Origin: Nitrospinota bacterium | GTDB lineage: Bacteria; Nitrospinota_A; UBA7883; JACRGQ01 | DNA: 64,000 nucleotides | Assembly (NCBI GenBank): GCA_016212275.1 | Contig: JACRGR010000017.1 | Location: 25,316-89,315, forward strand | Direction: 5' to 3' | Shown: one piece after another, positions 3,024 to 61,678 of the stretch | Layout: every line of letters starts with the position of its first letter | Position numbering within the stretch: the first letter of the stretch is position 1 | Program-made: the position numbers and the translations under genes | Notes under the pieces: generated by a model | Databases searched by the model: none | The model's input: the letters and a program-made list of their open reading frames with translations, nothing else | What the model was told of the DNA's origin: nothing

Positions 3024-3048
3024 CCGGAGAGGTCCCAGAGCGCGCTTT

Positions 3049-3077
3049 CTTGACTAGCCGCATTCGCAATCATATTT
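3049..3077 (+). promoter_or_regulatory. Candidate sigma70-like promoter (TTGACT-17 bp-TATTTT) upstream of the hybrid kinase gene
   Basis: Hexamers and spacing were read directly from the sequence about 70 bp upstream of the 3147 start. Confidence 0.25.
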
Positions 3078-3146
3078 TTTCCCGCTAAATACAATCATCT
3101 ATTCCTGCCACAAAGGGGTTACAATTTAGGTGGGTGGCAAAATGTT

Positions 3147-6100: not shown

Positions 6101-6410
6101 CCTGAATATGATAGATGTGGCAATCGTTGAGGCGGATGATGGTGAAACGGCAATGAAGTTCATTTCCGAAAGTGAAAACATGCCCCATGTGGTCATCTCG
6201 GATATCGAAATGCCAAAAATATCCGGGTTGGAATTGCTTGCTTATATCCAGTCGCGACACGAAACAAGGGGAATCCCGGTCATTATCGTTTCAGGTAAAC
6301 ATGGAATGGAGATTCGGGATGAAGTGTATGGCTTGGGTGCCAAGGAGTACCTTACCAAGCTAATTGACCCCGATGATTTCATACCCCGCATGCGTCGCTA
6401 TATAAGCTGA
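3147..6410 (+). CDS. Hybrid sensor histidine kinase (periplasmic solute-binding-protein family 3 domain, TM, PAS-GAF-PAS, HisKA, HATPase, C-terminal REC)
   Basis: The N-terminus has a signal/TM segment. The H-box is 'LVAHDLKSPL', the G-box region is 'GSGFGLMIAKEV', and the terminal receiver is 'LLVDDDPAFR…DIEMPKISG'. Confidence 0.85.
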   Translation: MNRSNFFLSLFCLLLTFSYPANARQIDVQLTQSERAWLYKHPNLKLGTVPDWAPLCFRGNKGELSGIAGAYKNLIEKKLSISFSLIPDAPWDEVLDNIKHRKTDVVMLLGQTPARDNYMVFSEILLELPYVIITRTDAPHVSGVSRLAGNRVSVRNRFVSHEWLAAEHPEIALFPKKSTIEALQAVSSGEVDAYVGSLADASLATSQAGLANLKIAASADFTNRLRIGVRKDWPELVPILNKTIATIPGAEHHEIWDRWIHLKQPGIDPRTLYGLAVAFIVAAFIGLVIHNLRLRNAYSGINEKVRERTKDLEGLNRELKESQARYHEIFEQVTDYILVLDPAQDPPVIIDASESAFRIHGYTRGEMVGRPITMIDVEGAKVPGRMDEILLKNPLQFEVLHRRKDGSTFRAEVLAKLINVSGKQLMYTVEHDITEKKKAEVILQSRADLSDLAVKSSLDQLIQSALDLAERQTFSQIGYFHFVDDDQENLTLQTWSTNTLQNMCKAEGKGMHYPVSKAGVWVDCFHAKKPVIHNDYAGLPHKKGLPEGHAPVIRELGVPVLQGDKVVAILGVGNKETDYNQDDVEVAFQIASILFDLVERKRAEEALAKESARLHTLLETASDGIHVMDEKGNIVQFSQSFAQMLGYSREETTRLNMADWEARIPREELPEKIQALIRRPATYETKHRRKDGTEFDVEINATGVVLDGKTYLYASSRDITERKRGERSLRTAKETAENATQLKDKFVSLVAHDLKSPLTIMTGFLKLIRLNSSDTLNDNQRQILDRAIDAGRQMTSLIEDILSLSRLRTGAVKLNMEFFDARQLGKKIAADYYHAARDKGIELMSDIPEHSRIYSDKTLFSEVINNFVTNAVKFCGKGDRITISMATNGGATVFVSDTGPGMEPSIAERLLSREESVSARGTAGETGSGFGLMIAKEVIKTLGGEFLMESAVGKGSRFGVRVPAVRPLILLVDDDPAFRFLLMQYLNMIDVAIVEADDGETAMKFISESENMPHVVISDIEMPKISGLELLAYIQSRHETRGIPVIIVSGKHGMEIRDEVYGLGAKEYLTKLIDPDDFIPRMRRYIS

Positions 6411-6808
6411 TGGGGGCGGGAGAAAGGGGATGAATAAAGCTTCTCCTCAACCCGAACATGCACACCAAGACGCACCATATCGTACTTGACATAATATACC
6501 TTATCGGAAGTCGCGGGCGTGGCATTCGAAATTGATGGCGTGGCGGTAATCAGAAATATCGCGAAGACTGCTATCTTTGCCAGCTCCCTTAAGCGGCCTG
6601 TCCTTCTGTCTTTCAACCACGCTTGGGTTAGGCGGTCGTCTTTAATGCCCAAGGCTTTTTCAATGTCGGTTGCCATCTCGATTGAAACTTTTGTGCGGCC
6701 TGTTTCAATGGCGGAAATGTAAACGATTCGTTTATGGAGTAATGCCGCTAACTGTTCTTGAGTGAGTCCTTTTTCAAGACGGAATTTTCTCATGGTCTCT
6801 GCAAACAT
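6398..6808 (-). CDS. XRE-family helix-turn-helix regulator (putative prophage repressor)
   Basis: The N-terminal HTH is 'LTQEQLAALLHKRIVYISAIETG' and a hydrophobic segment follows. The ORF reads across the left prophage repeat into flanking DNA. Confidence 0.55.
   Translation of the reverse strand: MFAETMRKFRLEKGLTQEQLAALLHKRIVYISAIETGRTKVSIEMATDIEKALGIKDDRLTQAWLKDRRTGRLRELAKIAVFAIFLITATPSISNATPATSDKVYYVKYDMVRLGVHVRVEEKLYSSPFSRPHQLI
6491..6512. repeat. Left copy of the 22-bp direct repeat (putative attL; dif-like core CATAA-TATACC-TTATC)
   Basis: It is an exact match to 13828–13849. Confidence 0.7.
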
Positions 6809-6836
6809 AATAACCCCTTCTGTTGATGCAAATAAA

Positions 6837-7316
6837 TTACCTCAATAGAAAATGTTTATCAAGGGTTTTTGTTAAGCCCACTATTTCTTCCGTCGAAGGT
6901 GGCTTTCTGTATCTCTTGAATGGGATGTTGGCCGCTTCAATATAAGTTGTTTTCACTTCGTCCTTTTTCTTTTGTGATTTTGAATTGTGGCTTGAATCAT
7001 CTAATTCAATTGCGGCAAGGACTAGAAAGTCTTTATTGCATATTACGAAATCAATGCTTCTCTGGCTGATTTTGTTCATGTGTTTTTGGCGGTCTTTGGT
7101 TGATCCTATTTCGATTAACTGCTTTAGGTCCACTTGCGCCAGAATTATATGGTCTGGTAGCGTTTTCTTGAGCAACCAAAAGAATTCTTGTTCTCTTTTG
7201 CTTAGCGGGTTCTTTTTTATTACTTCCAGTTCCTGCATCTTTTCTTTGCTTGTGAACTTTTTGATGAGTAATGCAATCACGCTCATCACTACAAGTAAGA
7301 AAAATGCACCTTTCAT
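6837..7316 (-). CDS. DUF2726-like (restriction-endonuclease-like/NERD-related) protein with an N-terminal TM segment
   Basis: The motif pattern is QVDL…IDFVICNKD…ELDDSSH. The gene is AT-rich and sits between the repressor-like gene and the divergent phage promoter region. Confidence 0.45.
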   Translation of the reverse strand: MKGAFFLLVVMSVIALLIKKFTSKEKMQELEVIKKNPLSKREQEFFWLLKKTLPDHIILAQVDLKQLIEIGSTKDRQKHMNKISQRSIDFVICNKDFLVLAAIELDDSSHNSKSQKKKDEVKTTYIEAANIPFKRYRKPPSTEEIVGLTKTLDKHFLLR

Positions 7317-7448
7317 GGGTTTGATAATTACCTATTAATTCTCCGAAAAATAGTTACAAATTTTACTTGACTTCTAAAATATACAACTCTTAAAATACTG
7401 TTTAAGCAAATTAATTAACATGAAATACTTTGAAATATAGGGGTGGTT

Positions 7449-7643
7449 ATGGCTTCTGGATTTGATGCCGGTGCGGTTCGCATGATTGTTTTTTCTCTCC
7501 GTCACGAAATGCCTATTTGTGATTCTGGTGGCGGTACTTTCACCGATGGCTACCACAAGGCTTTGGATGAAGTCCTAGAGCTTTTCGATATTTTCCGTAA
7601 CTCTGAAAAAAGAAAGGAGGTGGTCACCCAGGTTGATTCCTGA
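7449..7643 (+). CDS. Small hypothetical protein (first + strand gene of the prophage)
   Basis: An AGGGGTGG RBS lies 4 nt before the ATG. The product is 65 aa with no recognisable domain. Confidence 0.25.
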   Translation: MASGFDAGAVRMIVFSLRHEMPICDSGGGTFTDGYHKALDEVLELFDIFRNSEKRKEVVTQVDS

Positions 7644-7763
7644 TGGGGTACTCCCTCCCATAAAGACAATACGGGGGTAGTGAGTTCTTGGCGGTTTTTG
7701 ATACTTGACAAGCCAGCGACCGGAATGAATATGAGGGCGCGGCGCAAAAAGAAAGGGGCGATT

Positions 7764-8081
7764 ATGGCCTTTAAGAAAATTCAGTTGTTGGGGTGCGGCC
7801 AAATTAAAACGCACAAGACGGGCGATTACGACGGCAAGGACGGCAAGAAGGTGAAAACCGTTGACGTGGCTTTCCTGTACGACCGGGACGGGATATGCTT
7901 CCTCAACGACTTTCAGATCAGCGACCGGAACTACAACCCCGGCACGAAGGGGCTTGCATTCGCTGAAATCGGGCCGGAGTTGGTTGGCACCTCCGTTCTG
8001 TTCGTGGCGGAGGTCTCCGAATACGGCAACCGCATACTGCGCCTTGAACGTATGCCTGTAAAGGCCTCTGGGAACGTCTGA
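7764..8081 (+). CDS. Possible ssDNA-binding protein (gene V-like)
   Basis: The product is about 105 aa. There is a strong RBS (AAAGGGGCG) and the gene lies immediately upstream of the Rep gene. The assignment rests on size, position and a weak resemblance to an OB-fold. Confidence 0.35.
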   Translation: MAFKKIQLLGCGQIKTHKTGDYDGKDGKKVKTVDVAFLYDRDGICFLNDFQISDRNYNPGTKGLAFAEIGPELVGTSVLFVAEVSEYGNRILRLERMPVKASGNV

Positions 8082-8083
8082 CA

Positions 8084-9397
8084 ATGAATCCGCGCGGCAC
8101 CCCTTCCCTTCTGTTGATACTCATAGGGGTACTGCGTTTAAACGCCGCTCAAGGCGGTTCTATGGGTGCCACCGCCGACTCCCGCGTCAGCGGGCTAGGC
8201 GGTGGCCCCATCCCCCCTTACCCCAGTAATACGGGGGGATGGAACGTAATTTATTACACTTACAGCAATAAAGGGGGGGTGATGGGTCTTCCGGTTGTCA
8301 TATCCGGAGGGTGGGACTTACAGGCTTTTACTGCGAATTGGGATATGCCTCTTTTCGATTCTGACCACTTCAATCTTCTCATTGACCGGTTACGCCGGGC
8401 AAAAGGAAAATATGAGGTTGTCGAGGTTGACGGTAATCAATTCCGGCTACCCGGTTATAAGCCCGGCGGTTATTATGCTTTTCTCAATGAGAATCTGAAT
8501 ATCTGGATTAATCCTTCTTTGAATCCTACCCTCAAAGCTCAAATACATTCCGTTGGGGTGCATCGCTACGGTGTTGATGTTTTACAAGATATTGTTCGCG
8601 GCGTTGTGCGGTTTTTTGGTGGTGTCCCGGAAGGTGATTTCAAATTATTCCGGCAAGACTTTTTTGTTGACCTTCATGTTGATGAAATATCTGTAAAACC
8701 TGAAAACGTCCTTTCTCGCGCAAAAAAAATCCGGGTTGTTCACGATCCGTTATTGAGGGTTGAAACTCTCGGCGTTGGCACTCGCGGGAAGGAAACTGTC
8801 TTTTGCCGCATGTATGACAAGCGCAAGGAGATGGAAGAAACAAAAAAATACTGGTATCAGGCGATTCTTGATGAAAAGCCGTTATATGAAAAAGAACGTC
8901 CTGTTTGGAGGGTAGAGTTTGAAATCGGCGGTCTATACCTGCGCCAACTCGATTTGAGAGGTTGGGAAAAACTTAAAGAGCAGGAAGGGCATTTGCTTGA
9001 CCACTTATTTCATAAAACAGTTCGTCTTGTGCATCCAAATTTCGATGATAGCAACAAATCTAAAAATCCCCTTCTTCCTGAATGGCAAGTAATTCAAAAA
9101 TGGATTGCTGAACAATATCCCGGGTGGTCTTTCATTCTCCAGCGTGGCGCGAAGGTTCGTACTCTTGAACAGTTGAAAAAATCCAAGCAAGAACAGCTTA
9201 TAGATGCCATTCTCGCATATCGCGCTGTCCGTCAACTTCTTGGTGATGAAGAAAAACATATTCAAGGTTCCATTGAAAGTCTGTCGTATATGACCCGGAT
9301 TCCTTTTGGCTATGAGCGGTTGGAAAAAAAGAAATCTCGTTTGTTGGTTGTGGACAAACTGAAAAATGATGGCTGTTCTGATGAGGTTGGCGAATGA
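8084..9397 (+). CDS. Rolling-circle replication initiation protein (Rep_trans / filamentous-phage gpII/RstA-like)
   Basis: The protein is 437 aa and contains a '…CRMYDKRKE…' motif like the YxK active-site region of the Rep_trans family. Its position matches that family. Confidence 0.5.
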   Translation: MNPRGTPSLLLILIGVLRLNAAQGGSMGATADSRVSGLGGGPIPPYPSNTGGWNVIYYTYSNKGGVMGLPVVISGGWDLQAFTANWDMPLFDSDHFNLLIDRLRRAKGKYEVVEVDGNQFRLPGYKPGGYYAFLNENLNIWINPSLNPTLKAQIHSVGVHRYGVDVLQDIVRGVVRFFGGVPEGDFKLFRQDFFVDLHVDEISVKPENVLSRAKKIRVVHDPLLRVETLGVGTRGKETVFCRMYDKRKEMEETKKYWYQAILDEKPLYEKERPVWRVEFEIGGLYLRQLDLRGWEKLKEQEGHLLDHLFHKTVRLVHPNFDDSNKSKNPLLPEWQVIQKWIAEQYPGWSFILQRGAKVRTLEQLKKSKQEQLIDAILAYRAVRQLLGDEEKHIQGSIESLSYMTRIPFGYERLEKKKSRLLVVDKLKNDGCSDEVGE

Positions 9398-9515
9398 CAA
9401 CCGCGCAAATGTTGGACTTCATGACCGGCTGGGGTCTTTACATTACCATTTATTTTGCCGGTCTCGGTATATCTGCTGTCGTTAGCGTTCTACGTTCGGG
9501 CGAAATGTCCGAATG
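9393..9515 (+). CDS. Small hydrophobic protein (40 aa), candidate minor coat protein (pVII/pIX-like); absent from the ORF track
   Basis: The ATG overlaps the Rep stop (AATGA). The product is MTTAQMLDFMTGWGLYITIYFAGLGISAVVSVLRSGEMSE and lies immediately upstream of the major coat gene. Confidence 0.3.
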
Positions 9516-9542
9516 AATTCAAAAATGAAAGGAGGTGATTTC

Positions 9543-41946: not shown

Positions 41947-41993
41947 ATGGTCGGGACGGCGGGATTTGAACCCACGACCCCTCGCACCCCAAA
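41947..41993 (-). other. Orphan tRNA 3' fragment (anticodon loop to CCA; tRNA-Pro-like) = putative att site at the left end of the ICE
   Basis: The reverse complement …CTTTGGGGTGCGAGGGGTCGTGGGTTCAAATCCCGCCGTCCCGACCA has a T-arm, an acceptor 3' strand and CCA but no 5' half. A tyrosine integrase gene lies 180 bp away. Confidence 0.5.
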
Positions 41994-42170
41994 GAAGTTA
42001 ATTTAAAAACATAACTTCCATCCTATGAAGGATTTGGATTCCCAAATAGGTATTTTGTTGAAATATAGACACTTTCAAAGTATATTGGGGTAACTCAAAA
42101 TACCGCCAGGTCTCCGTGAAGTTGGACAACTCGGTGGGAATGATGGTGGGAAGATTCGGAGTCGATTGGA

Positions 42171-43421
42171 GTGCCGACACTTAAAAGACATAAGACACGA
42201 TACCCGGGAGTGCACTACATCCTTAACTCCCAGGGGCGGAAAGTCTTCTACATCATCTACTGGATAAAAAAAAACGCCGGCCAATTCAAAAAAGTCGAGG
42301 AAAAAGTCGGCGACGCCAAACGCAACGACATGACCGCGGCGCGCGCCGCCGCCATCAGGTCCCGGCGAATGTCGGGAGAAGAAAAGTCCAACCGTGAAAT
42401 GCGGATCGAAGCCAGAAAAACGGCGGAGTGGACCATCGGCCGGTTGTGGGAGGAATACCGGTCGCAAAAAGGCAAACCTCCGGACAAGCCCAACTATCAA
42501 ATTGGGACTTACGCCGACGCCGATTATTTCGCCTATGCGGGGCATTTAAAGGAACGGTTTGCAAAGAAACACCCCAGTGAGATCAGTTCGATCGAGCTGG
42601 GCCGTTTCCGCAATGAAAAACTCAAGGCGCTCTCACCGCAGTACGTGAAGCACTGCCTGACATTGTTGGTGCGCCTTGTCCGGTTCGGCGCGAAACACAA
42701 GTTGGTATCCCTGTTCGACTTCCAGGTTGAATACCCCCGTTTTGACAACAAGGTTACGAATCCGCTCAATGCCATGCACCTGAAAGCCCTGATCAAGACA
42801 CTGGCCGAATATGAAAATGCCCATGCGCGCGCGGTGGTCCTGACAGCCTTGATGACCGGACTGCGCCGTGGCTCCATCCTGCGCTTAAAGAAAAGCGACC
42901 TTGATTTCGAGCGGGGGACCATTTACCTGAACAGACCAAAAGGCACGCCAACCGGGGCAATTGAAACGATCCCCTTCCCTCTTCCCTTGCAGGGAATTCT
43001 CCGCGGTCTGCCGCCAAATGATTCGGATTACCTTTTCCCGGGGAGGGGCGGGGATTTTATGGTTGACGGCAAGCGCCACTGGATTGAAATTAAAAAACGT
43101 GCGGGACTGGAAGGGTTCCGATTTCATGATCTTCGGCACACCTTCGCCACCTTGGTGGCCGCCAGCGGCCAAGTGGACATCCGGGAACTGCAACGCCTCT
43201 TGCTCCACAAATCATTTGAAATGACCTTGCGTTATTCGCACCTACTCGATTCCCGGCTTCAGCAGGCATCGAACACCGCCTCGAACGTCATCCTCGATCT
43301 TGCAAAGGAGGATGAAGGTGAAACAGTCCCACGGTTTGGCTTATTGCCGGCACTTTCCCCGTCCGACATGAAAGACAAAAACTTCAAACCCGTCAGGAAG
43401 GGATCGGGAAAGACGAAATAG
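42171..43421 (+). CDS. int: Tyrosine-type site-specific integrase
   Basis: The C-terminal catalytic motifs are present (…HDLRHTFAT…LLHKSFEMTLRYSHL). It lies next to the tRNA fragment. Confidence 0.85.
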   Translation: MPTLKRHKTRYPGVHYILNSQGRKVFYIIYWIKKNAGQFKKVEEKVGDAKRNDMTAARAAAIRSRRMSGEEKSNREMRIEARKTAEWTIGRLWEEYRSQKGKPPDKPNYQIGTYADADYFAYAGHLKERFAKKHPSEISSIELGRFRNEKLKALSPQYVKHCLTLLVRLVRFGAKHKLVSLFDFQVEYPRFDNKVTNPLNAMHLKALIKTLAEYENAHARAVVLTALMTGLRRGSILRLKKSDLDFERGTIYLNRPKGTPTGAIETIPFPLPLQGILRGLPPNDSDYLFPGRGGDFMVDGKRHWIEIKKRAGLEGFRFHDLRHTFATLVAASGQVDIRELQRLLLHKSFEMTLRYSHLLDSRLQQASNTASNVILDLAKEDEGETVPRFGLLPALSPSDMKDKNFKPVRKGSGKTK

Positions 43422-44286
43422 CTTCCCGGCTCACCAGCAATGGATTCTTCAGCCTGGGAACCCTTAGGCCCGGAGAAAAGCACATAAGCTCGCTCCCTTC
43501 ATAATGTTCTCCAGCGCAATACGGAATGCCATAGGTGATACGATGAAAGCCTGAGTAAAGTTTCCTAATAGTGGGGGCGTTGTCATATGAAATAACCCAT
43601 GGATGTGAAATGTGCTCCCTTACGAGGGTCGCCAGCGTCACATGATCTTCGGCATTGTAGAAGTTTTCGTAGAGGTCCTGTCCTTTTACGAAATAAGGGG
43701 GGTCGAGATAAACGAGGCCATTCTTTCGAATAGATGGGATCACGTCCTTGATGAATTCAAAAGCATCCAGGTTGTAGAGATGTATTCGTTGTTTATAGCG
43801 GGCGATCGTCCGGATTTTTTCTTTGAGGGTGGCTTTATTGAACCGGGCGTCGATTTTCCACTTGCCGGTCTGTCCTTTCCCCCCGATTACCCCACCGCTC
43901 AATATTCCACTGCGGTTGGTACGGTTCAGAAACAAAGCGGCAAACCCCAAGTCCTGCAAAGTGTGTGAACCGGCATTCCGAAATACCTGTTGTTGCTTTT
44001 CCCATTCTTTCATCGTTACTTTAACCTGATCGATCCGCTTGCACAGATCATCAGAATGGTTCTTTGCCGAGAACCAAAAGGCGTAGATGGCCTTATTGAT
44101 ATCATTAAGGTAGATGGCCCGGGCATATCCATGAAACAGCAAAGAAAGAGCGAGACCGCCCCCGCCGGCGTAGGGCTCGACATAATGCACATCGCCCAGC
44201 CTGTTTGTCCTGATAATCAATTTAATAAAGTTGGCGAGGCGGCTTTTCCCCCCAGGATATCGCAATGGCGTATAGCTTGTTGGCAC
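43393..44286 (-). CDS. Dam-family N6-adenine DNA methyltransferase (orphan or cargo)
   Basis: It contains 'RYPGGKSRL', FxGxG-like 'VEPYAGGGG' and a 'DPPY' catalytic motif. Confidence 0.8.
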   Translation of the reverse strand: MPTSYTPLRYPGGKSRLANFIKLIIRTNRLGDVHYVEPYAGGGGLALSLLFHGYARAIYLNDINKAIYAFWFSAKNHSDDLCKRIDQVKVTMKEWEKQQQVFRNAGSHTLQDLGFAALFLNRTNRSGILSGGVIGGKGQTGKWKIDARFNKATLKEKIRTIARYKQRIHLYNLDAFEFIKDVIPSIRKNGLVYLDPPYFVKGQDLYENFYNAEDHVTLATLVREHISHPWVISYDNAPTIRKLYSGFHRITYGIPYCAGEHYEGSELMCFSPGLRVPRLKNPLLVSREAISSFPIPS

Positions 44287-44350
44287 TCATCAACCTCCCC
44301 AAATTGGCGCCAGTTTAACAGATACGCCTAGTGGTTGGCCATAGGGTAAT

Positions 44351-45712
44351 TTATATGGATCCTTCCAGTATGGAAAAGAACCCTTCCAAATTATCCCACG
44401 CTCTTTTCAGGTCTTTAGGCGATGCCTGATAGAGGTAATTATGGACATATGTATGAAAAGTATCAATTGAAGCAAAATGATGATCGTTTGACAGCGCTTT
44501 ATTAACCGCCTTCTCAACATTTTTATCAATTGTTCCTTTGGAAGCCAGATGCTGAAGAACAGCGGTGGTTTTTTCCTTAAGCGTCGCCCCTTTTCTCGAT
44601 GATGCCTTTACAGCGAGTTTATGCTTATCTTTATAGGCATCCACACATCCCTCAAAAAATACTCGAAAGAGCACGGAAACCGCGTTTGGGTATTCCTCCA
44701 CGGTCAATGACCGTAGCTCATGGTAAATCGCATTCAGCTTTTTATTGACTATCTCGATCTTGAACTGTTTTGGGATAAGCTTTTTCCGGTCGATGGAGCG
44801 TTGCGTTTGACGAGTTGTTGCGGCAACGGGAGCGCTTTCCCCCTCCCCGCCCGATTTTTCAGGATCGCCGTCAAGAACAAAAGGGATTGCCGCCTTTTTG
44901 CTCGAATCAAACAATGTTTCCTTGACCAATTTCTTGACGTACGTCTCACGCTGATCCTTGCTCTTGATATCATCCACTTTCTTTTTGCCGCCGGCCAGAT
45001 CCAAAATCATCCGTTTAAGGGCTTTGCCAATTTCGGAATCGTCGGTCACGCTTTTTAAAGCATCACCTTCAATGATCAGCCCCAGGAGGTCGCGGACGGC
45101 TGTGTCGTTCAAAAGACGGGTCAGATTGGTAATAGGAAAATCCTTCACCTGGTCATTGGCGACCAAGGCGTTTTCTTTGGCCCAATCCAACACCTTTATT
45201 GCATAAGCATCCTGCCCCGCATGCCCAATGCGTTGGTTAAAGCGTTCTCTTTCTTCCGCCCCCCAAGGCACGGTTCCCGCGCCCTCATGCTCTCCGCCAT
45301 GACGTAGCCGTACCCAGTGTTGCGCCGCATCAAAATCCTCCGCAATAACGCACTCTATTTCATCGGGAACTGAATGGGAAGGACTCTCCTTAAGTTGCTT
45401 TAGCTTTTTTTTGAGTAATTCATCCGGACATTTATCAACATCAAGAAGGAGTTGAAGGGCGGTAATCCTTCGATTTCCTTCCGCCACGATAAAATGCCCA
45501 TCATCTTCCTCGGAAGGGTAAACGAACACGCCATCGATTGGGCTCATCCCATGCTCAACGATATCCTTGGCAAGGCTGTATATCTTGTCTTTTATTTCTT
45601 TGAGCATCCATTCGACGATTTCGGGCTGGCTATTCTTTACTCCATGCCGGGCGTTTTGCGGATCAAGCAAAAGCTGGGTTAGCTGTATGGGTTTACGTTC
45701 GTATCTTGACAT
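44351..45712 (-). CDS. ParB/Sulfiredoxin-like nuclease-domain protein with a long C-terminal extension
   Basis: It has an N-terminal ParB-N-like motif (…FIVAEGNRRITALQLL…) and is 453 aa. Confidence 0.6.
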   Translation of the reverse strand: MSRYERKPIQLTQLLLDPQNARHGVKNSQPEIVEWMLKEIKDKIYSLAKDIVEHGMSPIDGVFVYPSEEDDGHFIVAEGNRRITALQLLLDVDKCPDELLKKKLKQLKESPSHSVPDEIECVIAEDFDAAQHWVRLRHGGEHEGAGTVPWGAEERERFNQRIGHAGQDAYAIKVLDWAKENALVANDQVKDFPITNLTRLLNDTAVRDLLGLIIEGDALKSVTDDSEIGKALKRMILDLAGGKKKVDDIKSKDQRETYVKKLVKETLFDSSKKAAIPFVLDGDPEKSGGEGESAPVAATTRQTQRSIDRKKLIPKQFKIEIVNKKLNAIYHELRSLTVEEYPNAVSVLFRVFFEGCVDAYKDKHKLAVKASSRKGATLKEKTTAVLQHLASKGTIDKNVEKAVNKALSNDHHFASIDTFHTYVHNYLYQASPKDLKRAWDNLEGFFSILEGSI

Positions 45713-45715
45713 TGT

Positions 45716-45937
45716 TCATCTTCTCCTCGCCCAAAAGGGCCATCTCCGCGAAAGACATAAATAACACGGGCGAAAACCAGCGCCACGCGCTTCGCCTTCT
45801 GATTGAAAAACGATCTTATTGGCCTGGGATATTTTCTGAGCTTGCCCGCATGATGGCTTATGGAATATTTGATGTTGACTGGAAGCCCAATACCCTCCGC
45901 ATATAGCGGAAAGGACCTTTTCAAATACCCCCATCAT
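45716..45937 (-). CDS. Stand-alone Ada-type Zn-binding (methylphosphotriester-sensing) domain-like protein
   Basis: It contains 'FHKPSCGQAQKISQANKIVFQSEGEARGAGFRPCYLC', which matches the Ada N-terminal Cys4 Zn pattern (…PSC…F…GFRPC..C). Confidence 0.4.
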   Translation of the reverse strand: MMGVFEKVLSAICGGYWASSQHQIFHKPSCGQAQKISQANKIVFQSEGEARGAGFRPCYLCLSRRWPFWARRR

Positions 45938-45939
45938 GA

Positions 45940-46737
45940 TTATTTAAATTCCTCCAACGACACATTCTGAAGAATATTACGCAAATCCAAAAGTGGCTCC
46001 GGCAACATTCGCCATACGAGACGCTCCTCGCCGCCTATCGCTTCAGAATTATTGTCCTTGCCCGGGAAATATTGACCGCTTCTATTTGGACGGGCTAGTC
46101 GGACGAACGAATGTGTGTTGTTATTTTTCACCGCCGATTTATTCACGAGCTTCAGGATATTTTCCTTAATCGCTTGCGGAACCTCCTTTAGCACATCGAT
46201 CAACTCATCCTTAATATCCCCTGCGGTCTTATATTCCGTCCGTAACCGCACTTGGCTATCTTTTTTCCAAACAAACCCGGCTCCATCCAATAGGCAAAGA
46301 TGTTCCCTTGAAAGCCAAAAGTAATCGGGAATTCCAGGTTGATAGCCGTCACCCGAGACTTCGACAAAATAGCACACGAGGAAGGAACGTGGTGTGCGAA
46401 GTAACAGATCATAGTCCGCCCTTTTAAGGATGAACTCTTTCCCTACAGTGCTCCGATGCCCCCCAGAGGTATCGCATCCCTTCCAATCACTATCGGCTAT
46501 CCGCCTTGATTTGACTTGGAAATATAATTGCTGCGGTATAGTCAATTCGGGCTTTGGAACGCAGACCATTTCTGTGTGGTTAAGGGCAATGATGTCGATC
46601 CCAATATCTGCGGCGGGCTTTGCAACATCCCAACCCATCATGTTTAACGTGCTCATCGTCAGGTGTTCAACCCCAAACCCAAAGTAAAGGTCTTGGATCT
46701 TTTCCCGTTCACTTCGCAAAACGGTCCTCCCCGGCAT
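45940..46737 (-). CDS. Hypothetical protein, possibly a PD-(D/E)xK-like nuclease
   Basis: It is 265 aa and is the first gene of the minus-strand operon. It has a weak 'DIGIDII…QVK' motif and no confident domain. Confidence 0.3.
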   Translation of the reverse strand: MPGRTVLRSEREKIQDLYFGFGVEHLTMSTLNMMGWDVAKPAADIGIDIIALNHTEMVCVPKPELTIPQQLYFQVKSRRIADSDWKGCDTSGGHRSTVGKEFILKRADYDLLLRTPRSFLVCYFVEVSGDGYQPGIPDYFWLSREHLCLLDGAGFVWKKDSQVRLRTEYKTAGDIKDELIDVLKEVPQAIKENILKLVNKSAVKNNNTHSFVRLARPNRSGQYFPGKDNNSEAIGGEERLVWRMLPEPLLDLRNILQNVSLEEFK

Positions 46738-46816
46738 CTGTCATTCCTGAGGACCATCAGGTAATAATCTAAGTTGCCCCCATTTCTCAAAAGCGCGGTC
46801 TTTGGCCGTCATTGGG

Positions 46817-47224
46817 CTATCCGGCCTTTTTTTTACGGAGCGCCCCTCCGGGCGCGCTTTTAAGAGCGGCGATCACCATAGCCTTGGCCTCCGGGGACGC
46901 GGCGTTAAAAAGCGCCAGCAGTTCTTTTTCCTCGGTTGTAAGGATCGATTCACTATTCCCATTGCCCCTAGAACTTGCGTTCTGCTTCAACATCCCACCC
47001 TCACCAGTAAGCAACCAGTGAATATTGACCCTTGTATTTTTTACAAGTTTCAAGCAGGCGTTATAGTTGGGCTTTGTTTTCCCTTCCAAGTAGTTTTTAA
47101 TCGAGTCGGGATCAAGACCGATAGCCCTTGACACCTCGGAGTAATTCAACTTACCGCTACCCGTGATTTTATCGCTGTATTCCTGCTTGATAAGCATTAG
47201 GAGGCGATCCTTAAAAGCTATCAA
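46817..47224 (-). CDS. Phage CI/XRE-like HTH repressor
   Basis: It contains '…NYSEVSRAIGLDPDSIKNYLEGKTKPN…'. Confidence 0.5.
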   Translation of the reverse strand: MIAFKDRLLMLIKQEYSDKITGSGKLNYSEVSRAIGLDPDSIKNYLEGKTKPNYNACLKLVKNTRVNIHWLLTGEGGMLKQNASSRGNGNSESILTTEEKELLALFNAASPEAKAMVIAALKSAPGGALRKKKAG

Positions 47225-47666
47225 AACAGCCTCCGATTCATTTCGGAATTACGCTTGACATTTTCCGATATTTATCGGAATATATCCCCATGCAAGCGGA
47301 AGGATGGAATATGGGCCGGAGCGGGATAGAAGAAAAAAGAAGTAACTTGGGGGTTTCAGGCGCACCTGAGAGCCTCGGTCCAGTGCTTCCGCTTGCAAAA
47401 TGGAAGTCCCGTTGCTCCCTGGGCCCCCGGTTATTTAATTCAAAACGCACACGCACATCTCCCCTTGCGAGTTTCAAGGGGAATCCAAAGGAATGCCCCC
47501 CGCTGGAAAAGGTTAGTCCCAAACTACCGGGCGTAACTGCCCGGAATCCCTATCCAGCGGGGAATTTTACCACGAAAGTACGGGATTTTGTACGGATTGT
47601 TACCCTAAAGGAAATCAGCGAGTGCGTCCCCGATGCAACCCACGCCGGAGAGGCGGACTTTGGGAT

Positions 47667-47906
47667 TCAGTGGAGGAGACGCGCGGCTACGGTCTGGATG
47701 ACGAGGAGCGCCACAAGCCACTTGATGATGTCATATTTCATCTCCGCCATCTCTTTGCGGAGCGTTTCGATGTCCTTCTTGGTGGCAAGGTCGGCGTGGG
47801 TCTCCTCGATGTTCTCTTTGAGGACTTCGGCCAGTTCCCGCGCCGCCGCATCGGGCATCGCGTGGCTTTTCAGCCGTTCGTATATTTTCAGGGTATCTAC
47901 AGCCAT
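47667..47906 (-). CDS. Small coiled-coil protein with a C-terminal TM segment (DUF1640-like)
   Basis: It contains 'MAVDTLKIYERLK…' and the hydrophobic tail IIKWLVALLVIQTVAA. Confidence 0.3.
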   Translation of the reverse strand: MAVDTLKIYERLKSHAMPDAAARELAEVLKENIEETHADLATKKDIETLRKEMAEMKYDIIKWLVALLVIQTVAARLLH

Positions 47907-48032
47907 GGGCGGATTATCGCACCATTCAGCCCAAAGGCGCAAGAGCCCGACACGGTTCCCCGTCCATCCGAAGACTTTCCAAGTAAAGTTCTATCGCCTC
48001 TTTGATGTTCTTGAAATAAGGACGCGGGAATC

Positions 48033-48281
48033 ATGAAAAAGATTCCCGCCGCGCCCATGATCCCCACCCTTGAATTCAAGGTCTACTACGTGCCATCGCT
48101 ACTCAAGGAAGGCGATGTGGCCACGATACTCGGCATCTCGCCGCTTACGCTCAGAAACGAGCGTTCGCGCGGCAAGATCAGCATCCCCTATGTACGGATC
48201 GGCCGGCTGATCCGCTACCGTATCGAAGACCTAAACAGCTTCATCGAGCAAAACCGTAAGGTTCCAATGGAGGTTGCATGA
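48033..48281 (+). CDS. xis: Excisionase/AlpA-like HTH (MerR-superfamily HTH_17) protein
   Basis: It contains '…DVATILGISPLTLRNERSRGK…YVRIGRLIRYRIEDL'. Confidence 0.55.
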   Translation: MKKIPAAPMIPTLEFKVYYVPSLLKEGDVATILGISPLTLRNERSRGKISIPYVRIGRLIRYRIEDLNSFIEQNRKVPMEVA

Positions 48282-48447
48282 CAAGCGAAACCTCCCCCTT
48301 ATACCTCTTCTCCCGGCTTGCCGGAGCTTACCCCGCTCCGGCGGCCCCCCCTAAGTCAAAAAGAAGTCCATGTGACTTTTCCTCCCTGAAAGCCGGGCGG
48401 AGTGACGCCCGCCCGGCCCTTCTCCTTTTGGATGAAGGTTCTTTACC

Positions 48448-48669
48448 GTGAAAACACGACATCGCGACAATAAGCGGCTCTTGATTACGTCTGCGAAAGC
48501 AGGCGGGCATAAGTGCGCCAACGGCGGTGAATGGCGAACGTGCGTGGATTGCGACGGGAGATTGCACGAGATAACCTGCACCAGCAGACTTGACTATCGC
48601 ATTGACTGTTGTGAGAAACGGCATAAGGCACTAGGACTGCCAGTTGTCATATCCGCCAGGGAGCCGTAA
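48448..48669 (+). CDS. Small Cys-rich (putative Zn-binding) protein, copy B
   Basis: The core 'LLITSAKAGGHKCANGGEWRTCVDCDGRLHEITCTSRLDYRIDCCEKRH' is about 94% identical to copy A. The shared DNA identity (~90% over ~170 bp) lies on the opposite strand. Confidence 0.45.
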   Translation: MKTRHRDNKRLLITSAKAGGHKCANGGEWRTCVDCDGRLHEITCTSRLDYRIDCCEKRHKALGLPVVISAREP

Positions 48670-49854: not shown

Positions 49855-51681
49855 TTGGATGCGATGTTGTTACGCATAAGAACGGTCAAGCCCGGTTTTT
49901 TCTGGGACGAGGACTTGGCGCATTACCCGCCGCTGTGCAGGCTCTTCCTGGAGGGGTTATGGTGCGCGGCGGACAAAATGGGTCGGCTTGAGGACCGGCC
50001 GATGATGCTACAACACCTCATCTTGCCGTACGAGAAGAATGAGGAGTTGGCCGGTCAATACCTGGAACTGCTCGCCTCGCCCGGCCCCGTGCGCGGCACC
50101 ACCTACGTGAACCGGTACGAAGTTGTTGGCAAGCGCTATATCCAGTTGCTGGGTTTCCTTGAGGATCACCGCCCCGGCAAGTTTGAGCCGCCCAGCATGA
50201 TCCCCTCGGTTGACGGATTCGTGGCCGACGTGGAAGCCTTTAATACGGTGGTTGACGGCAAGCTCCGCAAGGAGGTATATCAAAGAGACGGGTACAAGTG
50301 TGTTTATTGCGGCGCGGATCTGGCGGCCGAGGCGCGCAAGATCTGCGTTGATTACGTTATCCCCCTGATGAAGGGCGGGGCCAGTAGCCGCAAGAACCTT
50401 GTTACGTCTTGCAAGAAGTGTCATGGCAGGAAGGGTGAGCGCACGCCGGACGAAGCCGGTATGGCTTGTCCGGAGGGTTTTGGTGAAAAGTTGCCGGAAC
50501 GGCCGTTTCAGCCCTCCATTCCTCTTGAAGATGGTGCGGACGGGGTCACTAACCCCGTCATGACCCCGTCCAACGGGGGTCGCAACCCCGTTAACCCCCC
50601 GTTGACGGGTGTTCGGCACCCCGTTGACGGTACGTTAACCACCCGTCAACATACCACTGACCAACTGTTACCCCACCGTGAACATACCGTTAACGGTGCT
50701 TCAACGGGCGTTAACCACCCTTTGACGGGTCAACGACCCCTTGTTAACGGTGGTCAACGGGTGGTCAACCCGCTCTTAACCACCCATGAACCCCCCGTTG
50801 ACACCTCTTCACCCCTCGTTAACCCCCTGTTAACGGGGGGTCAACCCCCTGCCGACGACCCCTGTCGTAGGAAAGGAACGGAAAGTCATGGAGAGGAAAT
50901 GAATGTAGATATCGTCCGGCATCAACCCCCGTCGCCACGGGGTCAAGCTCATTCGGTTCTCGGTGATTTCGAAGAAAGTCCCGAACCCGGTTCGGGACGA
51001 CAGATAAATTCTTCCGATGGAGATAAAAAAAATGAAAGTCCTCCCGGCGTTATTCCATTCCCCAAACCCTCAGGTAATGGTGGGAAAGGACAGGGATTCT
51101 CCGCCAGCGGTCGGCCAGGCGACTTTAAGCTGGTGGTGGGTAGCTCGAATCCGAGGGTGTTCAAACGTGCATCTGTACAGTACCAGCGCACGGAAGCAAC
51201 TGACGAGATCATCTCGTATCTCAACCGCCGGTTAGGGAAAGAATACGCTTTGGACGGTCAGAAATCCCTTGAGTGTGTTCATGGCCGCCTTGATGAAGGA
51301 TTCACGGTCGGCCAGTTCAAGATCGTTATAGACCGCAAAGCGGCGCTTTGGAAGACCGACCCCACCTACTCGGTCTATCTGCGGCCTCAGACGTTGTTCG
51401 GCGAAAACTTCGAATCGTACTTGAATGAGATTGACGGAAGCCAGGAGCAACGGCTTAAGGAATTACTCGCCATTTGCCAGAGTCGGCCAAACAGCCTCAC
51501 CGATCGGAGGATCGAGCATGATGGTTTCACGGCCGATGACCGGCATAGGGCGGTCCATGCTTATTTTGAGGAAGTGAAGGCGGCGTACAAGACAAAGAAC
51601 GTTGCCGTGCTTGAAGGTCTGGTCAAGGAGGATATGTACGAACGGATGCGCAAAATGAAGGAGGGTGGCAATGCGGGGTGA
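49855..51681 (+). CDS. Putative replication initiator: N-terminal domain + HNH endonuclease domain + repeat-encoded linker + conserved phage C-terminal replication domain
   Basis: The HNH region is 'CVYCGADL…CKKCH'. The C-terminus 'EIISYLNRRLGKEYALDGQKSLECVHGRLDEGFTVGQFKIVIDRKAALWKTDPTYSVYLRPQTLFG' matches the conserved phage replication-protein C-terminal domain family. Confidence 0.5.
   Translation: MDAMLLRIRTVKPGFFWDEDLAHYPPLCRLFLEGLWCAADKMGRLEDRPMMLQHLILPYEKNEELAGQYLELLASPGPVRGTTYVNRYEVVGKRYIQLLGFLEDHRPGKFEPPSMIPSVDGFVADVEAFNTVVDGKLRKEVYQRDGYKCVYCGADLAAEARKICVDYVIPLMKGGASSRKNLVTSCKKCHGRKGERTPDEAGMACPEGFGEKLPERPFQPSIPLEDGADGVTNPVMTPSNGGRNPVNPPLTGVRHPVDGTLTTRQHTTDQLLPHREHTVNGASTGVNHPLTGQRPLVNGGQRVVNPLLTTHEPPVDTSSPLVNPLLTGGQPPADDPCRRKGTESHGEEMNVDIVRHQPPSPRGQAHSVLGDFEESPEPGSGRQINSSDGDKKNESPPGVIPFPKPSGNGGKGQGFSASGRPGDFKLVVGSSNPRVFKRASVQYQRTEATDEIISYLNRRLGKEYALDGQKSLECVHGRLDEGFTVGQFKIVIDRKAALWKTDPTYSVYLRPQTLFGENFESYLNEIDGSQEQRLKELLAICQSRPNSLTDRRIEHDGFTADDRHRAVHAYFEEVKAAYKTKNVAVLEGLVKEDMYERMRKMKEGGNAG
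50560..50860. repeat. Iteron-like array: about 18 copies of the short motif CCGTTRACGG / GTYAACGG (GTTAAC/GTTGAC cores) inside the rep ORF
   Basis: It was read directly from the sequence. Direct and inverted copies are densely packed. It translates to a degenerate VNPLLTG-type repeat. Confidence 0.65.
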
Positions 51682-58405: not shown

Positions 58406-58984
58406 ATGCCGATGGAAGAACAGGTACACCTCTGGGAAAAAGACCGGCTCAAGTTCATGGTCAAGGCGCTCTGGGGGTTGGTGGTGGTACTGATCATCGC
58501 CCTCGTCTGGAACAGCTACAGCGTGAGACGGGACATCGACCGGGCGCTTAAAGAGTCCAAAACCATCATTATGACGGCCGACATGCTCATCTCCTACGAA
58601 GCGGCCGACAACAACCTGAGCGACGACTACATCAGGAAAATGGTGACCTACATACTTGCCAAGGAACTCAACTTCGACCCCTTAACGGCGCGGGGCGGCT
58701 TCGAGGAACTTCTCAAGCTGTATTCGGACGCGGAGAAGGATAACGCGATTAAAAAATACTACGAGATGGCCAAGCTGTACGAGGAAAAGGAAGTCGTAAG
58801 TTTCTTCAACCCGGTCTCCTACAAGGTCGACTCGCGCCAGGCCGGGCTGGTGGTGCAAGGACGCCGGCGGCTCTCCATCAAAGGAAAACCCCAACCTGAC
58901 GGCGAGGAATCCTGGCTGATCCGTTTCAAGATCGAAAACGCCCGGTTCCAGCTACTTTCGGTCATCCAGGTGGAAGGGAAATAA
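58406..58984 (+). CDS. traE: F-type T4SS TraE (VirB8-like)
   Basis: It is 192 aa with an N-terminal TM. Its size and synteny match TraE. Confidence 0.55.
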   Translation: MPMEEQVHLWEKDRLKFMVKALWGLVVVLIIALVWNSYSVRRDIDRALKESKTIIMTADMLISYEAADNNLSDDYIRKMVTYILAKELNFDPLTARGGFEELLKLYSDAEKDNAIKKYYEMAKLYEEKEVVSFFNPVSYKVDSRQAGLVVQGRRRLSIKGKPQPDGEESWLIRFKIENARFQLLSVIQVEGK

Positions 58985-58987
58985 CTT

Positions 58988-59935
58988 ATGCGTAACACTT
59001 TATTGCTCTGCTTATTGGCGGGCCTAACGCTCTCCACCACCCCTATGCTTGCGTCCGGTGAAGATAATGCCGCTCCCGGCGGTAATGAGACCACCAGGCC
59101 GCCACAAAACAATGCGGGCGTCCAATCGGGCGTTAAACGACCCGAGTTGCCTCCATCCCTCATCGAGGAAAATCCCTACGAGACCTACATCCAGAAAATG
59201 TTGGAGAAAGGGGAATACTCCCTCCCCTCTCCCGATCACGGCAGGATCACCGTCCTTCCGGAAGTGACCACGGTGGTGCCGCTTTCCGCGGTGGACCAGA
59301 ACCGGATCGTCTGCCCGGATTTAATCAGGGATGCCCGCGGGTCGATTGAAAAAGGACTTCTGGAACCGCAGATCGCCGGCAAGGAGGTATTCATCAAGTT
59401 CGCCTGGGTGGACACGGGCCGCGGCCCGCAGTACGCCAGACAACCGAACGAACTGTTCATCATGTGCGGCGATGAGCGTTACCAACTGCTGGTGCGTCCG
59501 CGGAAGATCCCCACGCAAACGATATACCTCTCGTCGGGGCTGAAGAAACGGATCGAACAGAACGAAGGGGTGTTCAAATCGAATTCCATAGAGGAATCCG
59601 CGATAAAAATGATCGCCCTTGTCCACAACGACGACCTGCCGGAGTCCTTCTCCATACGGGAGGTCAACCGGACACTCAACAAGTTCAAGGAGCTCAAGAC
59701 CAGGCTCAAGCGCAAGGTGATCGCCGAGGGGACGGGGATGGAACTGTACGAGTACGAGGTACTGCTGGCCGAAGGGATCAAGGAGGTGCGTCTGGATGAA
59801 GACATCGCCAAAAAGCTCGCGGGAGAGGAAGGTCTGCTCGCCTCGTCCGCGGCGCGCCACCAACTGACAAGGGAATGCCCGGAGTGCTCCGGGACGCGGA
59901 TATTCATCGTGAAATCGGTTTTCAGGGGCAATTGA
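58988..59935 (+). CDS. traK: F-type T4SS TraK (VirB9-like)
   Basis: It has a signal peptide and its size and position between traE and traB fit TraK. Confidence 0.5.
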   Translation: MRNTLLLCLLAGLTLSTTPMLASGEDNAAPGGNETTRPPQNNAGVQSGVKRPELPPSLIEENPYETYIQKMLEKGEYSLPSPDHGRITVLPEVTTVVPLSAVDQNRIVCPDLIRDARGSIEKGLLEPQIAGKEVFIKFAWVDTGRGPQYARQPNELFIMCGDERYQLLVRPRKIPTQTIYLSSGLKKRIEQNEGVFKSNSIEESAIKMIALVHNDDLPESFSIREVNRTLNKFKELKTRLKRKVIAEGTGMELYEYEVLLAEGIKEVRLDEDIAKKLAGEEGLLASSAARHQLTRECPECSGTRIFIVKSVFRGN

Positions 59936-59936
59936 G

Positions 59937-61223
59937 ATGGCCGACGAAGAAATCCCTCAAACGCCGGATCAGTATCCCCCCGCGAAGACAACGCTATGGA
60001 GCGGTCTTAGCGCCCAAACCAAAAGCTACATTTGGAAAGGGATCGGCATTGCCGGCGTAATCGTCTTTTCCACCGAAATCTACCTGATGATGGACGACTC
60101 ACAAGAGCAACCACCGCCAAAACCGGCGGTGGGGGTGGAGAAGTTCGAGTCAAACATGTCCTCCGGCTCGGTGAAGATCCTTAAACAAAGCGAAGCTATT
60201 GATAAGGACCTCACCATCGACCGTTTGACCAAACAGATCGAGGAATTTAAAAACCCCAAAGAGGCCAAAGAGCCCGGAAGTGGTGCCGAGATAAATAAAA
60301 ACGGGAATACTCCAGCCGGCGGTGCGGCCCCGGCGGATCTAAACAACCTGCCACTCCCTCCCCCGCCGGGCAAACTGGCCGAAACGGCAAATGTTTCCGG
60401 GATGCCATATCCTCCTCCGCAGGGCGGAGCCGCCACGCAGAACTTCAACCTTCCTCCAATACCGCAAAAGAAAGAGGAAAGGGCCGTACGGGGAGGCTTT
60501 CTTGTCGTCACGGCAAAGGTGGAGGAACCGAAAAAGGAACAGGACTCAAAAAAAAAGCCGATCGCCTATATACCTTCCGCATCCTGGACTGAAGCGGTCG
60601 TCCTCATCGGCGGATTCGCGCCGGTCGTAAAACAGGCGGACGTTTCCGCCGCGCCGTTCCTTTTGCGGATACAGACCCCCGCCCAGCTCCCCAACGAAGC
60701 AAAGGCGGATATCTCGGGCTGTTTCGTGCTTGCCGCCGGCGTGGGATCGCTCCAGGACAAGCGGGCCCACCTCAACGCCTACAAGCTGTCCTGCGTCAAC
60801 CGCCGGAAGCAGGCGGTCATCGACCAGACGATCGACGCCTACGTTGCCGAGACCGACCCGAGCATTGACGGCATCCGCGGCCCCGTGGTGGCGGAACTAA
60901 AGGAGCCGATGATCACATCCATCATTCTCGGCTCCATTTCCGGGATAGGGGATGTCATGAAAGCAACCTCCTCCACGCAGATCATCAGCCCGCTGGGGCA
61001 GACCCAGGCATTGGACACAAACAAACTGGGTCAGGCCGCGGTGGGCGGGGCGCTGACGAAAGGGTTCGATAAGTTGCAGGAATTCTACCTGCGCTTCATT
61101 GAACTTTCGATGCCCACCATCGGGGTAAGCGCGGGGATCCGGGTCAACGTCGTTTTCAAAAACGGCGTGGAACTTCAGTTAAAGGAGATCTGTTTGGAGG
61201 GTGAGGAATGTTCAGGCGAATGA
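59937..61223 (+). CDS. traB: F-type T4SS TraB (VirB10-like)
   Basis: An N-terminal TM is followed by a Pro-rich region and a C-terminal VirB10-like domain. Confidence 0.6.
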   Translation: MADEEIPQTPDQYPPAKTTLWSGLSAQTKSYIWKGIGIAGVIVFSTEIYLMMDDSQEQPPPKPAVGVEKFESNMSSGSVKILKQSEAIDKDLTIDRLTKQIEEFKNPKEAKEPGSGAEINKNGNTPAGGAAPADLNNLPLPPPPGKLAETANVSGMPYPPPQGGAATQNFNLPPIPQKKEERAVRGGFLVVTAKVEEPKKEQDSKKKPIAYIPSASWTEAVVLIGGFAPVVKQADVSAAPFLLRIQTPAQLPNEAKADISGCFVLAAGVGSLQDKRAHLNAYKLSCVNRRKQAVIDQTIDAYVAETDPSIDGIRGPVVAELKEPMITSIILGSISGIGDVMKATSSTQIISPLGQTQALDTNKLGQAAVGGALTKGFDKLQEFYLRFIELSMPTIGVSAGIRVNVVFKNGVELQLKEICLEGEECSGE

Positions 61224-61678
61224 TCGCGGTAATCGCATTGTTGCCGATGGTGGGTTGCGTGCTACCCGGGCAATGGATCGAACAAAAAGACCTTCCGTGC
61301 TCAGGTCCCCAAGGGTGGAAATGCCAGTCAATCAACCAGACCTATAAAGATGCCCTATCGGAGGGAAAGGACGGAAAGAGCGAGGCAACCGGAACCGATC
61401 ACCAAGATGCAGGTAATATCGGACGGAATGAATGGCGCCACCTCTACAAGCCTCCCGCGCCGGAATGGAGCATTGCCTCGCCGCGGGACGATGACGCTTT
61501 GAATGAAGGAAAACCGCTTCGAGATCCAGGCGAAGTGCTCCGGATAAAGATCTACGACTATGTTGATAAAAAAGGGGTGCTTTTCCGCGGGCGCTACGCC
61601 TATATCGAAGTCAAAAAGCCGCGCTGGAACCTTGGAGCCGGAATCGGCGGCAAGGATGGAAAAGGCTCCGTGAAATAG
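61208..61678 (+). CDS. traV: F-type T4SS lipoprotein TraV (VirB7-like)
   Basis: It has the lipobox 'LLPMVGC' and a TraV-like size. Confidence 0.5.
   Translation: MFRRMIAVIALLPMVGCVLPGQWIEQKDLPCSGPQGWKCQSINQTYKDALSEGKDGKSEATGTDHQDAGNIGRNEWRHLYKPPAPEWSIASPRDDDALNEGKPLRDPGEVLRIKIYDYVDKKGVLFRGRYAYIEVKKPRWNLGAGIGGKDGKGSVK

Follow-up and report, generated by a model that had tools for sequence, protein, structure and literature searches.

Do four closely spaced genes beside an integrase form one methylation-linked defense system, or does the locus join a known system to unrelated neighbors? The question is raised by a 64,000-nucleotide stretch of a Nitrospinota bacterium genome (contig JACRGR010000017.1; hereafter the window), in which four minus-strand genes encode a 265-amino-acid (aa) nuclease-like protein, a 73-aa Ada-like zinc-finger protein, a 453-aa ParB-like protein and a 297-aa adenine methyltransferase (MTase). 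An original prediction had read them as a plausible methylation-linked defense or anti-defense cassette in a combination not described before, with the 265-aa protein as the possible nuclease of a type II restriction-modification (R-M) unit. The plausibility of a methylation-linked defense cassette is upheld here, since the MTase and the ParB-like protein make up the known PD-lambda-5 pair and the surrounding element resembles an integrative and conjugative element (ICE). We consider it probable that the region forms the cargo end, next to the integrase, of this ICE-like element, where a PD-lambda-5 core shares a transcription unit with two separate passengers.

Identity of the ParB/HEPN-methyltransferase pair

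PD-lambda-5, for which PADLOC and DefenseFinder both have an entry, is a two-gene anti-phage system that was recovered by functional selection in E. coli ECOR7 (RCQ13837.1/RCQ13838.1) and listed by its discoverers as 'ParB/HEPN, methyltransferase' (Vassallo et al. 2022). It protected against nearly all phages tested, phage protection being shown for the E. coli ECOR7 system only, and its cloning needed a delta-mrr host, which implies that the MTase is active. The reading proposed by its discoverers is that of a compacted 'RM+Abi' (Vassallo et al. 2022).

Both components are matched in the window over nearly their full length. The 453-aa protein (A) aligns to the PADLOC profile PD-Lambda-5_A (PDLC03998) at 3.4e-130, with residues 6-449 on profile positions 4-463 of 466, and the 297-aa protein (B) aligns to PD-Lambda-5_B (PDLC04018) at 3.2e-117, with residues 1-282 on profile positions 1-281 of 291. 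PADLOC, which had been suggested as a check on all four proteins, returned nothing significant for the 265-aa one. The A and B genes are adjacent and co-oriented, with A upstream and 64 bp between them. On sequence evidence, the ParB-like gene and the adenine MTase gene are thus a complete copy of the known PD-lambda-5 pair, and the combination taken to be undescribed has a known system at its center.

B matches the D12-class model PF02086 at 8e-21 and carries PGGK at residue 11 and DPPY at residue 195, while on TIGR00571 ('dam') it scores 69.2 bits, below the cut-off of 114.85 bits. Judged by these scores, it is a D12-class MTase and not an orthodox Dam, so that of the proposed Dam-family assignment the class and both motifs stand and the Dam label falls. 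A has no real Pfam or NCBIfam model and gave just weak GmrSD_N and DUF6953 matches. Its predicted structure comprises a ParB/Srx N-domain, a middle domain and a C-terminal HEPN-fold domain; the first of these had been recognized in the original prediction, and the last, as modeled here, had been missed. The invariant residues fall in both of these parts, with N20, R22 and G79-N80-R81-R82 in the ParB/Srx part and E332, R350, E354 and H424 in the HEPN part.

The conservation of the pair was surveyed in 88 loci encoding an A homologue, about 76 of them non-redundant and 60 of the 88 carrying at least 1.2 kb of upstream flank. An MTase homologue lies within 150 bp downstream of A in 82 loci, and the remaining six end at a contig end. 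Among the 82 complete loci the MTase gene is co-oriented with A in 78 and convergent in four. The constant partner of the MTase is therefore the ParB/HEPN protein, in every untruncated locus (82/82), which speaks against the 265-aa protein as its type II R-M nuclease. Neither of the two extra genes is conserved with the pair: none of the 88 loci holds a member of the 265-aa family, sought by profile hidden Markov model (HMM), or an Ada-like open reading frame (ORF), sought by phmmer and a motif regular expression. The original prediction had named such a lack of conservation as grounds for giving up the four-gene idea, which fails on this count.

The position upstream of A is occupied in other ways. 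No gene family recurs there in the surveyed loci, and the tightly abutting upstream ORF present in 22 of 71 non-redundant loci is of mixed type, including type III Mod, ResIII helicase, HNH-like and unknown proteins. At the closest homologous locus (L002, 43% identity), this position holds two unrelated genes, whose products (139 aa and 276 aa) were compared with the 73-aa and 265-aa proteins as divergent counterparts and proved unrelated. A single-protein search of genome contigs with A yielded one partial, irrelevant match, in a Paceibacterota metagenome-assembled genome (MAG; L001). Homologues of A were found in prophages and temperate phages, in chromosomal islands, and beside DarTG and type II and type III R-M genes; in one Vibrio prophage (PQ189371), A adjoins a type II endonuclease, a regulator and an integrase. 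Judged by this gene order, PD-lambda-5 consists strictly of two genes, and variable, often defense-type genes gather before A. An instance of defense stacking was also seen downstream of the pair at one locus (L008 4057-6764), where the MTase gene runs convergently to A and a DarT-Macro (DarTG) toxin-antitoxin pair comes after it.

The spacer between A and B contains a motif, TGGCCA-N17/18-TA(G/A)ACT, that has a single match in the 64-kb window, with 0.00 expected from shuffles. Five other distinct loci (L002, L005, L033, L035 and L078) carry the motif immediately behind the stop codon of A; two of them, L033 and L035, took no part in deriving it. Similar to a sigma-70 -35/-10 pair, the motif may be an independent MTase promoter, or an operator; a generic promoter/terminator scan performed no better than on shuffled sequence.

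In the mechanism that we favor, B would methylate resident DNA at adenine and so mark self, and A would be the effector that acts once unmarked invader DNA appears. Its ParB-like NTP-/DNA-binding domain would read DNA and then license a HEPN or ParB-type nuclease activity to destroy nucleic acid. We infer this mode of action of A, which fits the 'RM+Abi' logic of the discoverers. The spacer motif would allow the MTase to be expressed on its own, as R-M systems require. The nuclease and the zinc finger would stand outside PD-lambda-5, as separate passengers behind an Xre/cI-type repressor gene.

The two genes upstream of the pair

Database profiles gave little purchase on the 265-aa protein, which has no significant match in Pfam, NCBIfam, PHROGs or PADLOC; its family is not in PADLOC-DB. 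A word-indexed homology search with the protein itself returned only the self-match, and one with the family alignment returned two proteins, whereas an exhaustive HMMER scan of 1.8 billion representatives recovered 53 relatives of about 240-290 aa. The family alignment is invariant at Y18, G20, E24, D44, D48, Q74 and K76. The predicted structure (predicted local distance difference test, pLDDT, 91) has a restriction-endonuclease-like core fold of the DUF4365/Hjc type, whose helix 1, strand 2 and strand 3 bear the conserved acidic and lysine side chains. As modeled, then, the 265-aa protein is a genuine PD-(D/E)xK nuclease of the DUF4365/Hjc type, and the weak signature first noticed in it is borne out by both the conserved residues and the predicted fold. 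The public annotation (HZA04_02725, 238 aa) begins at M28 and drops Y18, G20 and E24; because these invariant residues lie upstream of M28, the longer ORF read from the outset, with its ATG at 46737, is the better start.

Members of this nuclease family stand solitary in eight other genomic contexts, none of which has an MTase gene beside the nuclease gene. Their neighbors include SRA-HNH, HNH-HIT, PIN_12 and Abi_C genes, an Xre-type helix-turn-helix (HTH) gene with an integrase, and a Bacillus plasmid integrase/HNH region. The HTH proteins that precede the nuclease-family genes in the window and in L011 were compared and are unrelated. Most likely, the 265-aa protein is an independent single-gene nuclease effector of the mobile-element or defense-island type.

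With 24.7 bits (E 2.4e-5), the 73-aa protein passes the 23-bit threshold of Ada_Zn_binding (PF02805), and it aligns to E. coli Ada residues 34-73, including Cys42, Cys69, Cys72 and the GFRPC motif. The Ada N-terminal assignment therefore stands, and the Cys4 ligand set ascribed to it does not: in the alignment to 1ADN and 1U8B, Ada Cys38, which is both methyl acceptor and zinc ligand, faces His26 (FHKPSC). C13, the fourth cysteine, falls beyond the limits of the domain and is not shared by the relative found in L010 (3e-11), which likewise reads FHxPSC. The zinc ligands are likely H26, C30, C58 and C61. With histidine in place of the methyl-acceptor cysteine, the methyl sensing that had been attributed to this protein is unlikely, and it is most likely a small DNA-binding module. 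Relatives were absent from viral contigs, and one match was obtained in the phage collection; in a phage-collection record the H-C-C-C module forms the C-terminal tail of a metallo-beta-lactamase (MBL)-fold hydrolase. Literature on Ada_Zn_binding and the 'sunset domain' yielded nothing relevant to defense.

An Ada-like gene accompanies the nuclease family in one of its eight other contexts, L010, where it lies 3 kb off, on the other strand, and is paired with an unrelated gene. There, the nuclease-family member shares one operon with SRA-HNH (ScoMcrA-like) and HNH-HIT genes (3442-6735, plus strand) in a defense-island-like setting, and the opposite strand (2107-3259) encodes a 128-aa Ada-like H-C-C-C protein paired with a 246-aa protein. 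The latter was compared by profile with the nuclease family and is unrelated to it.

The gene block and its host element

All four minus-strand ORFs lie beside the integrase where they had been placed, and they look like real genes (Table 1). The tight packing described for them, with gaps of 5 bp or less, holds between the nuclease and Ada-like genes (2 bp) and between the Ada-like gene and A (3 bp), and not between A and B. The integrase and MTase genes are convergent, and their 3' ends overlap by 29 bp. The minus-strand block runs from a short coiled-coil ORF through the Xre/cI-type HTH gene, the nuclease gene and the Ada-like gene to A and B. The HTH gene heads the block 79 bp upstream of the nuclease gene, and its product is likely the repressor of the element. 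An excisionase-type HTH_17 gene diverges from this cargo block. If ICE and phage immunity regions are a guide, cargo behind a repressor gene would be expressed while the element is integrated. The G+C content of the cargo stretch is 0.46-0.51, compared with about 0.57. Public annotation covers the block as locus tags HZA04_02715 to 02730 (Nitrospinae MAG), and an independently assembled 6.6-kb contig (L102) is 100% identical to positions 41963-48609 of the window.

Table 1 Coordinates of the gene block, its motif and the surrounding features (positions in the window unless a locus is named)
Feature	Position	Strand	Length	Details
tRNA 3' half	41947-41993	minus		anticodon loop to CCA, probably tRNA-Pro UGG
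Tyrosine integrase gene	42171-43421	plus	416 aa	PF00589 at 4.6e-21
D12-class MTase gene (B)	43393-44286	minus	297 aa	GTG start behind GGAGG Shine-Dalgarno
Promoter-like motif TGGCCA-N18-TAAACT	44312-44341	minus		within 64-bp A-B spacer
ParB/HEPN gene (A)	44351-45712	minus	453 aa	PD-lambda-5 A, putative effector
Small Ada-N-terminal-like zinc-finger gene	45716-45937	minus	73 aa	annotated HZA04_02720, hypothetical protein
DUF4365/Hjc-like PD-(D/E)xK nuclease gene	45940-46737	minus	265 aa	annotated HZA04_02725
Xre/cI-type HTH gene	46817-47224	minus	135 aa	HTH_19, HTH_3, weak Phage_CI_repr; GGAGG before TTG start
Excisionase-type HTH_17 gene	48033-48281	plus	82 aa	PF12728 at 1.5e-9
Conjugation genes TraE, TraK, TrbI/TraB-like, TraV	58406-61678	plus		Pfam matches
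Spacer motif in L002	3769-3797			
Spacer motif in L005	6360-6388			
Spacer motif in L033	2210-2238			
Spacer motif in L035	3726-3754			
Spacer motif in L078	1858-1887			

A tRNA 3' half directly left of the integrase gene and beside intact tRNA-Gly and tRNA-Glu genes is likely an att remnant and the left border of the element, which seems to have inserted into a tRNA gene. This tRNA 3' half was read from the letters themselves; Rfam gave a weak tRNA-like/tmRNA match at 41948-42015, and ARAGORN reported no full tRNA. Contig L102 breaks at 41963, within this tRNA 3' half. No att direct repeat or second copy of the tRNA 3' half occurs within the 64-kb window, nor do a right border, a relaxase or an oriT. 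To the right of the block follow replication-initiator/HNH, sigma-like, PAPS-reductase-like, ScpB-like and ParM/ALP actin genes and then the Tra genes, with Pfam matches to TraE (2e-19), TraK_N, TraK_C, TrbI and TraV. A prophage was considered as the host element and was dropped once these conjugation genes had been found, since they make the surrounding element ICE-like.

Other features of the window were noted alongside. The replication-initiator/HNH protein (49855-51681, plus strand; 608 aa) joins a phage replication-initiator N-terminus to an HNH domain, a repetitive Pro/Thr/Val-rich linker and a Phg_2220_C domain, and the linker is encoded with 20-nt direct repeats at 50587-50834. Tandem repeats of about 100-125 bp lie in an ORF at 11101-11342, within a second low-G+C island (6000-14000; 0.42-0.48, compared with about 0.57). 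A 191-bp inverted repeat of 84% identity lies at 13566-13756 and 48449-48639, and contig L102 breaks inside it. The repeat codes for a conserved protein of about 60 aa that is rich in Cys (…AKAGGHKCANGGEWRTCV[DE]CDGRLHEITCTSRLDYRIDCC[ED]KRH…), and each of two low-G+C blocks (6-14 kb and 42-48.6 kb) has one copy at its right edge. The presence of the repeat at both blocks suggests two related mobile modules in the window.

Alternative readings and relation to known systems

Several points weigh against a PD-lambda-5 core with two separate passengers. Gaps as short as 2 bp and 3 bp between the nuclease gene, the Ada-like gene and A suggest coupled translation and a possible local functional link. 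Detection by phmmer and regular expression may miss divergent Ada-like forms, and the solitary habit of the nuclease family was read from just eight other contexts, most of them on short contigs. A shares only about 29% identity with its enterobacterial relatives, so that its function is carried over by homology; its HEPN domain lacks the canonical Rx4-6H motif, and with only R350, E354 and H424 invariant, its RNase activity is uncertain. Finally, we infer that the integrase and the conjugation genes belong to one element, whose right border lies outside the window.

The strongest competitor takes the nuclease and the Ada-like zinc finger as a two-gene module of their own, with the finger as DNA-binding adaptor, inhibitor or controller. 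The 2-bp gap between both genes, the fusion of Ada-like H-C-C-C modules to DNA-acting hydrolases and the Ada-like gene in the L010 neighborhood would all fit such a module, but an Ada-like ORF is missing from seven of the eight other contexts of the nuclease family, and in L010 the Ada-like gene pairs with the 246-aa gene, unrelated to the nuclease family. We regard this module as unlikely. A related idea, that the MTase has been recruited to license a second effector, namely the coupled nuclease, with the H-C-C-C finger as a DNA-binding or regulatory subunit under the same mark, we hold to be quite unlikely. If true, this would be a naturally occurring hybrid of the kind 'one methyltransferase, two unrelated effectors'; as a minimum, the nuclease family would be a new single-gene defense family outside PADLOC.

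The cassette could instead serve establishment of the ICE or anti-restriction, the MTase pre-protecting incoming ICE DNA and the ParB-like protein acting on the element's own DNA. The element does carry conjugation genes, and the original prediction pointed to ParB-like/MTase pairs as recurring in leading regions. Against this, both proteins are near full-length matches to a system that was selected for phage defense and validated in that role, a toxin-type HEPN domain is part of A, and the homologues lie in prophages and chromosomal islands and next to DarTG and type II and type III R-M genes. The cassette also sits in the integrase-repressor block and is read with the repressor gene, which is atypical for an early-transferred leading region (the oriT was not located). 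An establishment role is accordingly very improbable. Least probable of all is one four-gene methylation-linked system with two effectors, in which the MTase would hold the 265-aa protein in check as a restriction endonuclease and the Ada-like protein would be a sensor or regulator. In its favor, all of the genes are on one strand and gaps of 2 bp and 3 bp separate the first three, the nuclease keeps its full catalytic constellation in a fold like that of restriction enzymes, and in L010 a gene of the nuclease family and one for an Ada-like H-C-C-C protein are found within 3 kb of sequence. Against it, neither extra gene occurs in any of the 88 PD-lambda-5 loci, the nuclease family is never found by an MTase in its eight other contexts, in which a classical type II endonuclease could not survive, the invariable MTase partner is A, and the two L010 genes lie on opposite strands in different operons.

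Read as a PD-lambda-5 core with two passengers, the locus overturns no current knowledge: the copy is new, the system is known, and its two neighbors are not conserved. It extends the validated but mechanistically unexplained PD-lambda-5 of E. coli to Nitrospinota and to an ICE-like carrier. The 82 loci present the ParB/HEPN-MTase pair as strictly two-gene with variable neighbors, and the conserved promoter-like element before the MTase gene fits an R-M-like logic of establishment. The small DUF4365-like nuclease family, carried on mobile elements and outside PADLOC, is a reasonable candidate for defense screening.

Among known nucleases, the 265-aa protein is closest in type to DUF4365 (PF14280), archaeal Hjc and the BisI family, from which it differs by the lack of a significant profile match and by an extra C-terminal domain of about 110 aa. 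The 73-aa protein resembles the N-terminal zinc domain of E. coli Ada (1ADN, 1EYF, 1U8B), to which it can be aligned with three cysteines kept and a Pfam score above threshold; unlike Ada, it stands alone, with neither an AraC-type HTH nor an O6-alkylguanine transferase domain. Type II R-M systems with a Dam-like (D12/alpha-class) MTase, of the DpnII/MboI type, share with the pair an N6-adenine MTase for self-marking, encoded beside the effector, and a separate promoter-like element before the MTase gene. In these systems the effector is a PD-(D/E)xK or HNH endonuclease, whereas here it would be a ParB/Srx and HEPN protein, and the PD-(D/E)xK gene of the operon is not a conserved partner of the MTase. 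ParB/DUF262 effectors (GmrSD, SspE and DndB-type) differ in turn: the C-terminal effector part of PD-lambda-5 A has a HEPN fold and not DUF1524/HNH, PD-lambda-5 is paired with an MTase instead of phosphorothioation, and it is not known to depend on modification.

The closest likeness is with PD-lambda-5 of E. coli ECOR7 itself. Both consist of two genes, A then B, on the same strand, encoding a ParB-like and HEPN protein and a D12-class adenine MTase, and the present pair is carried on a mobile element near the integrase, as in Vibrio prophage PQ189371. The copy described here, known from sequence alone, has two further genes packed tightly in front of it that other loci lack, and it resides in a Nitrospinota host on an ICE-like carrier, whereas the E. 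coli system resides in an enterobacterial prophage.

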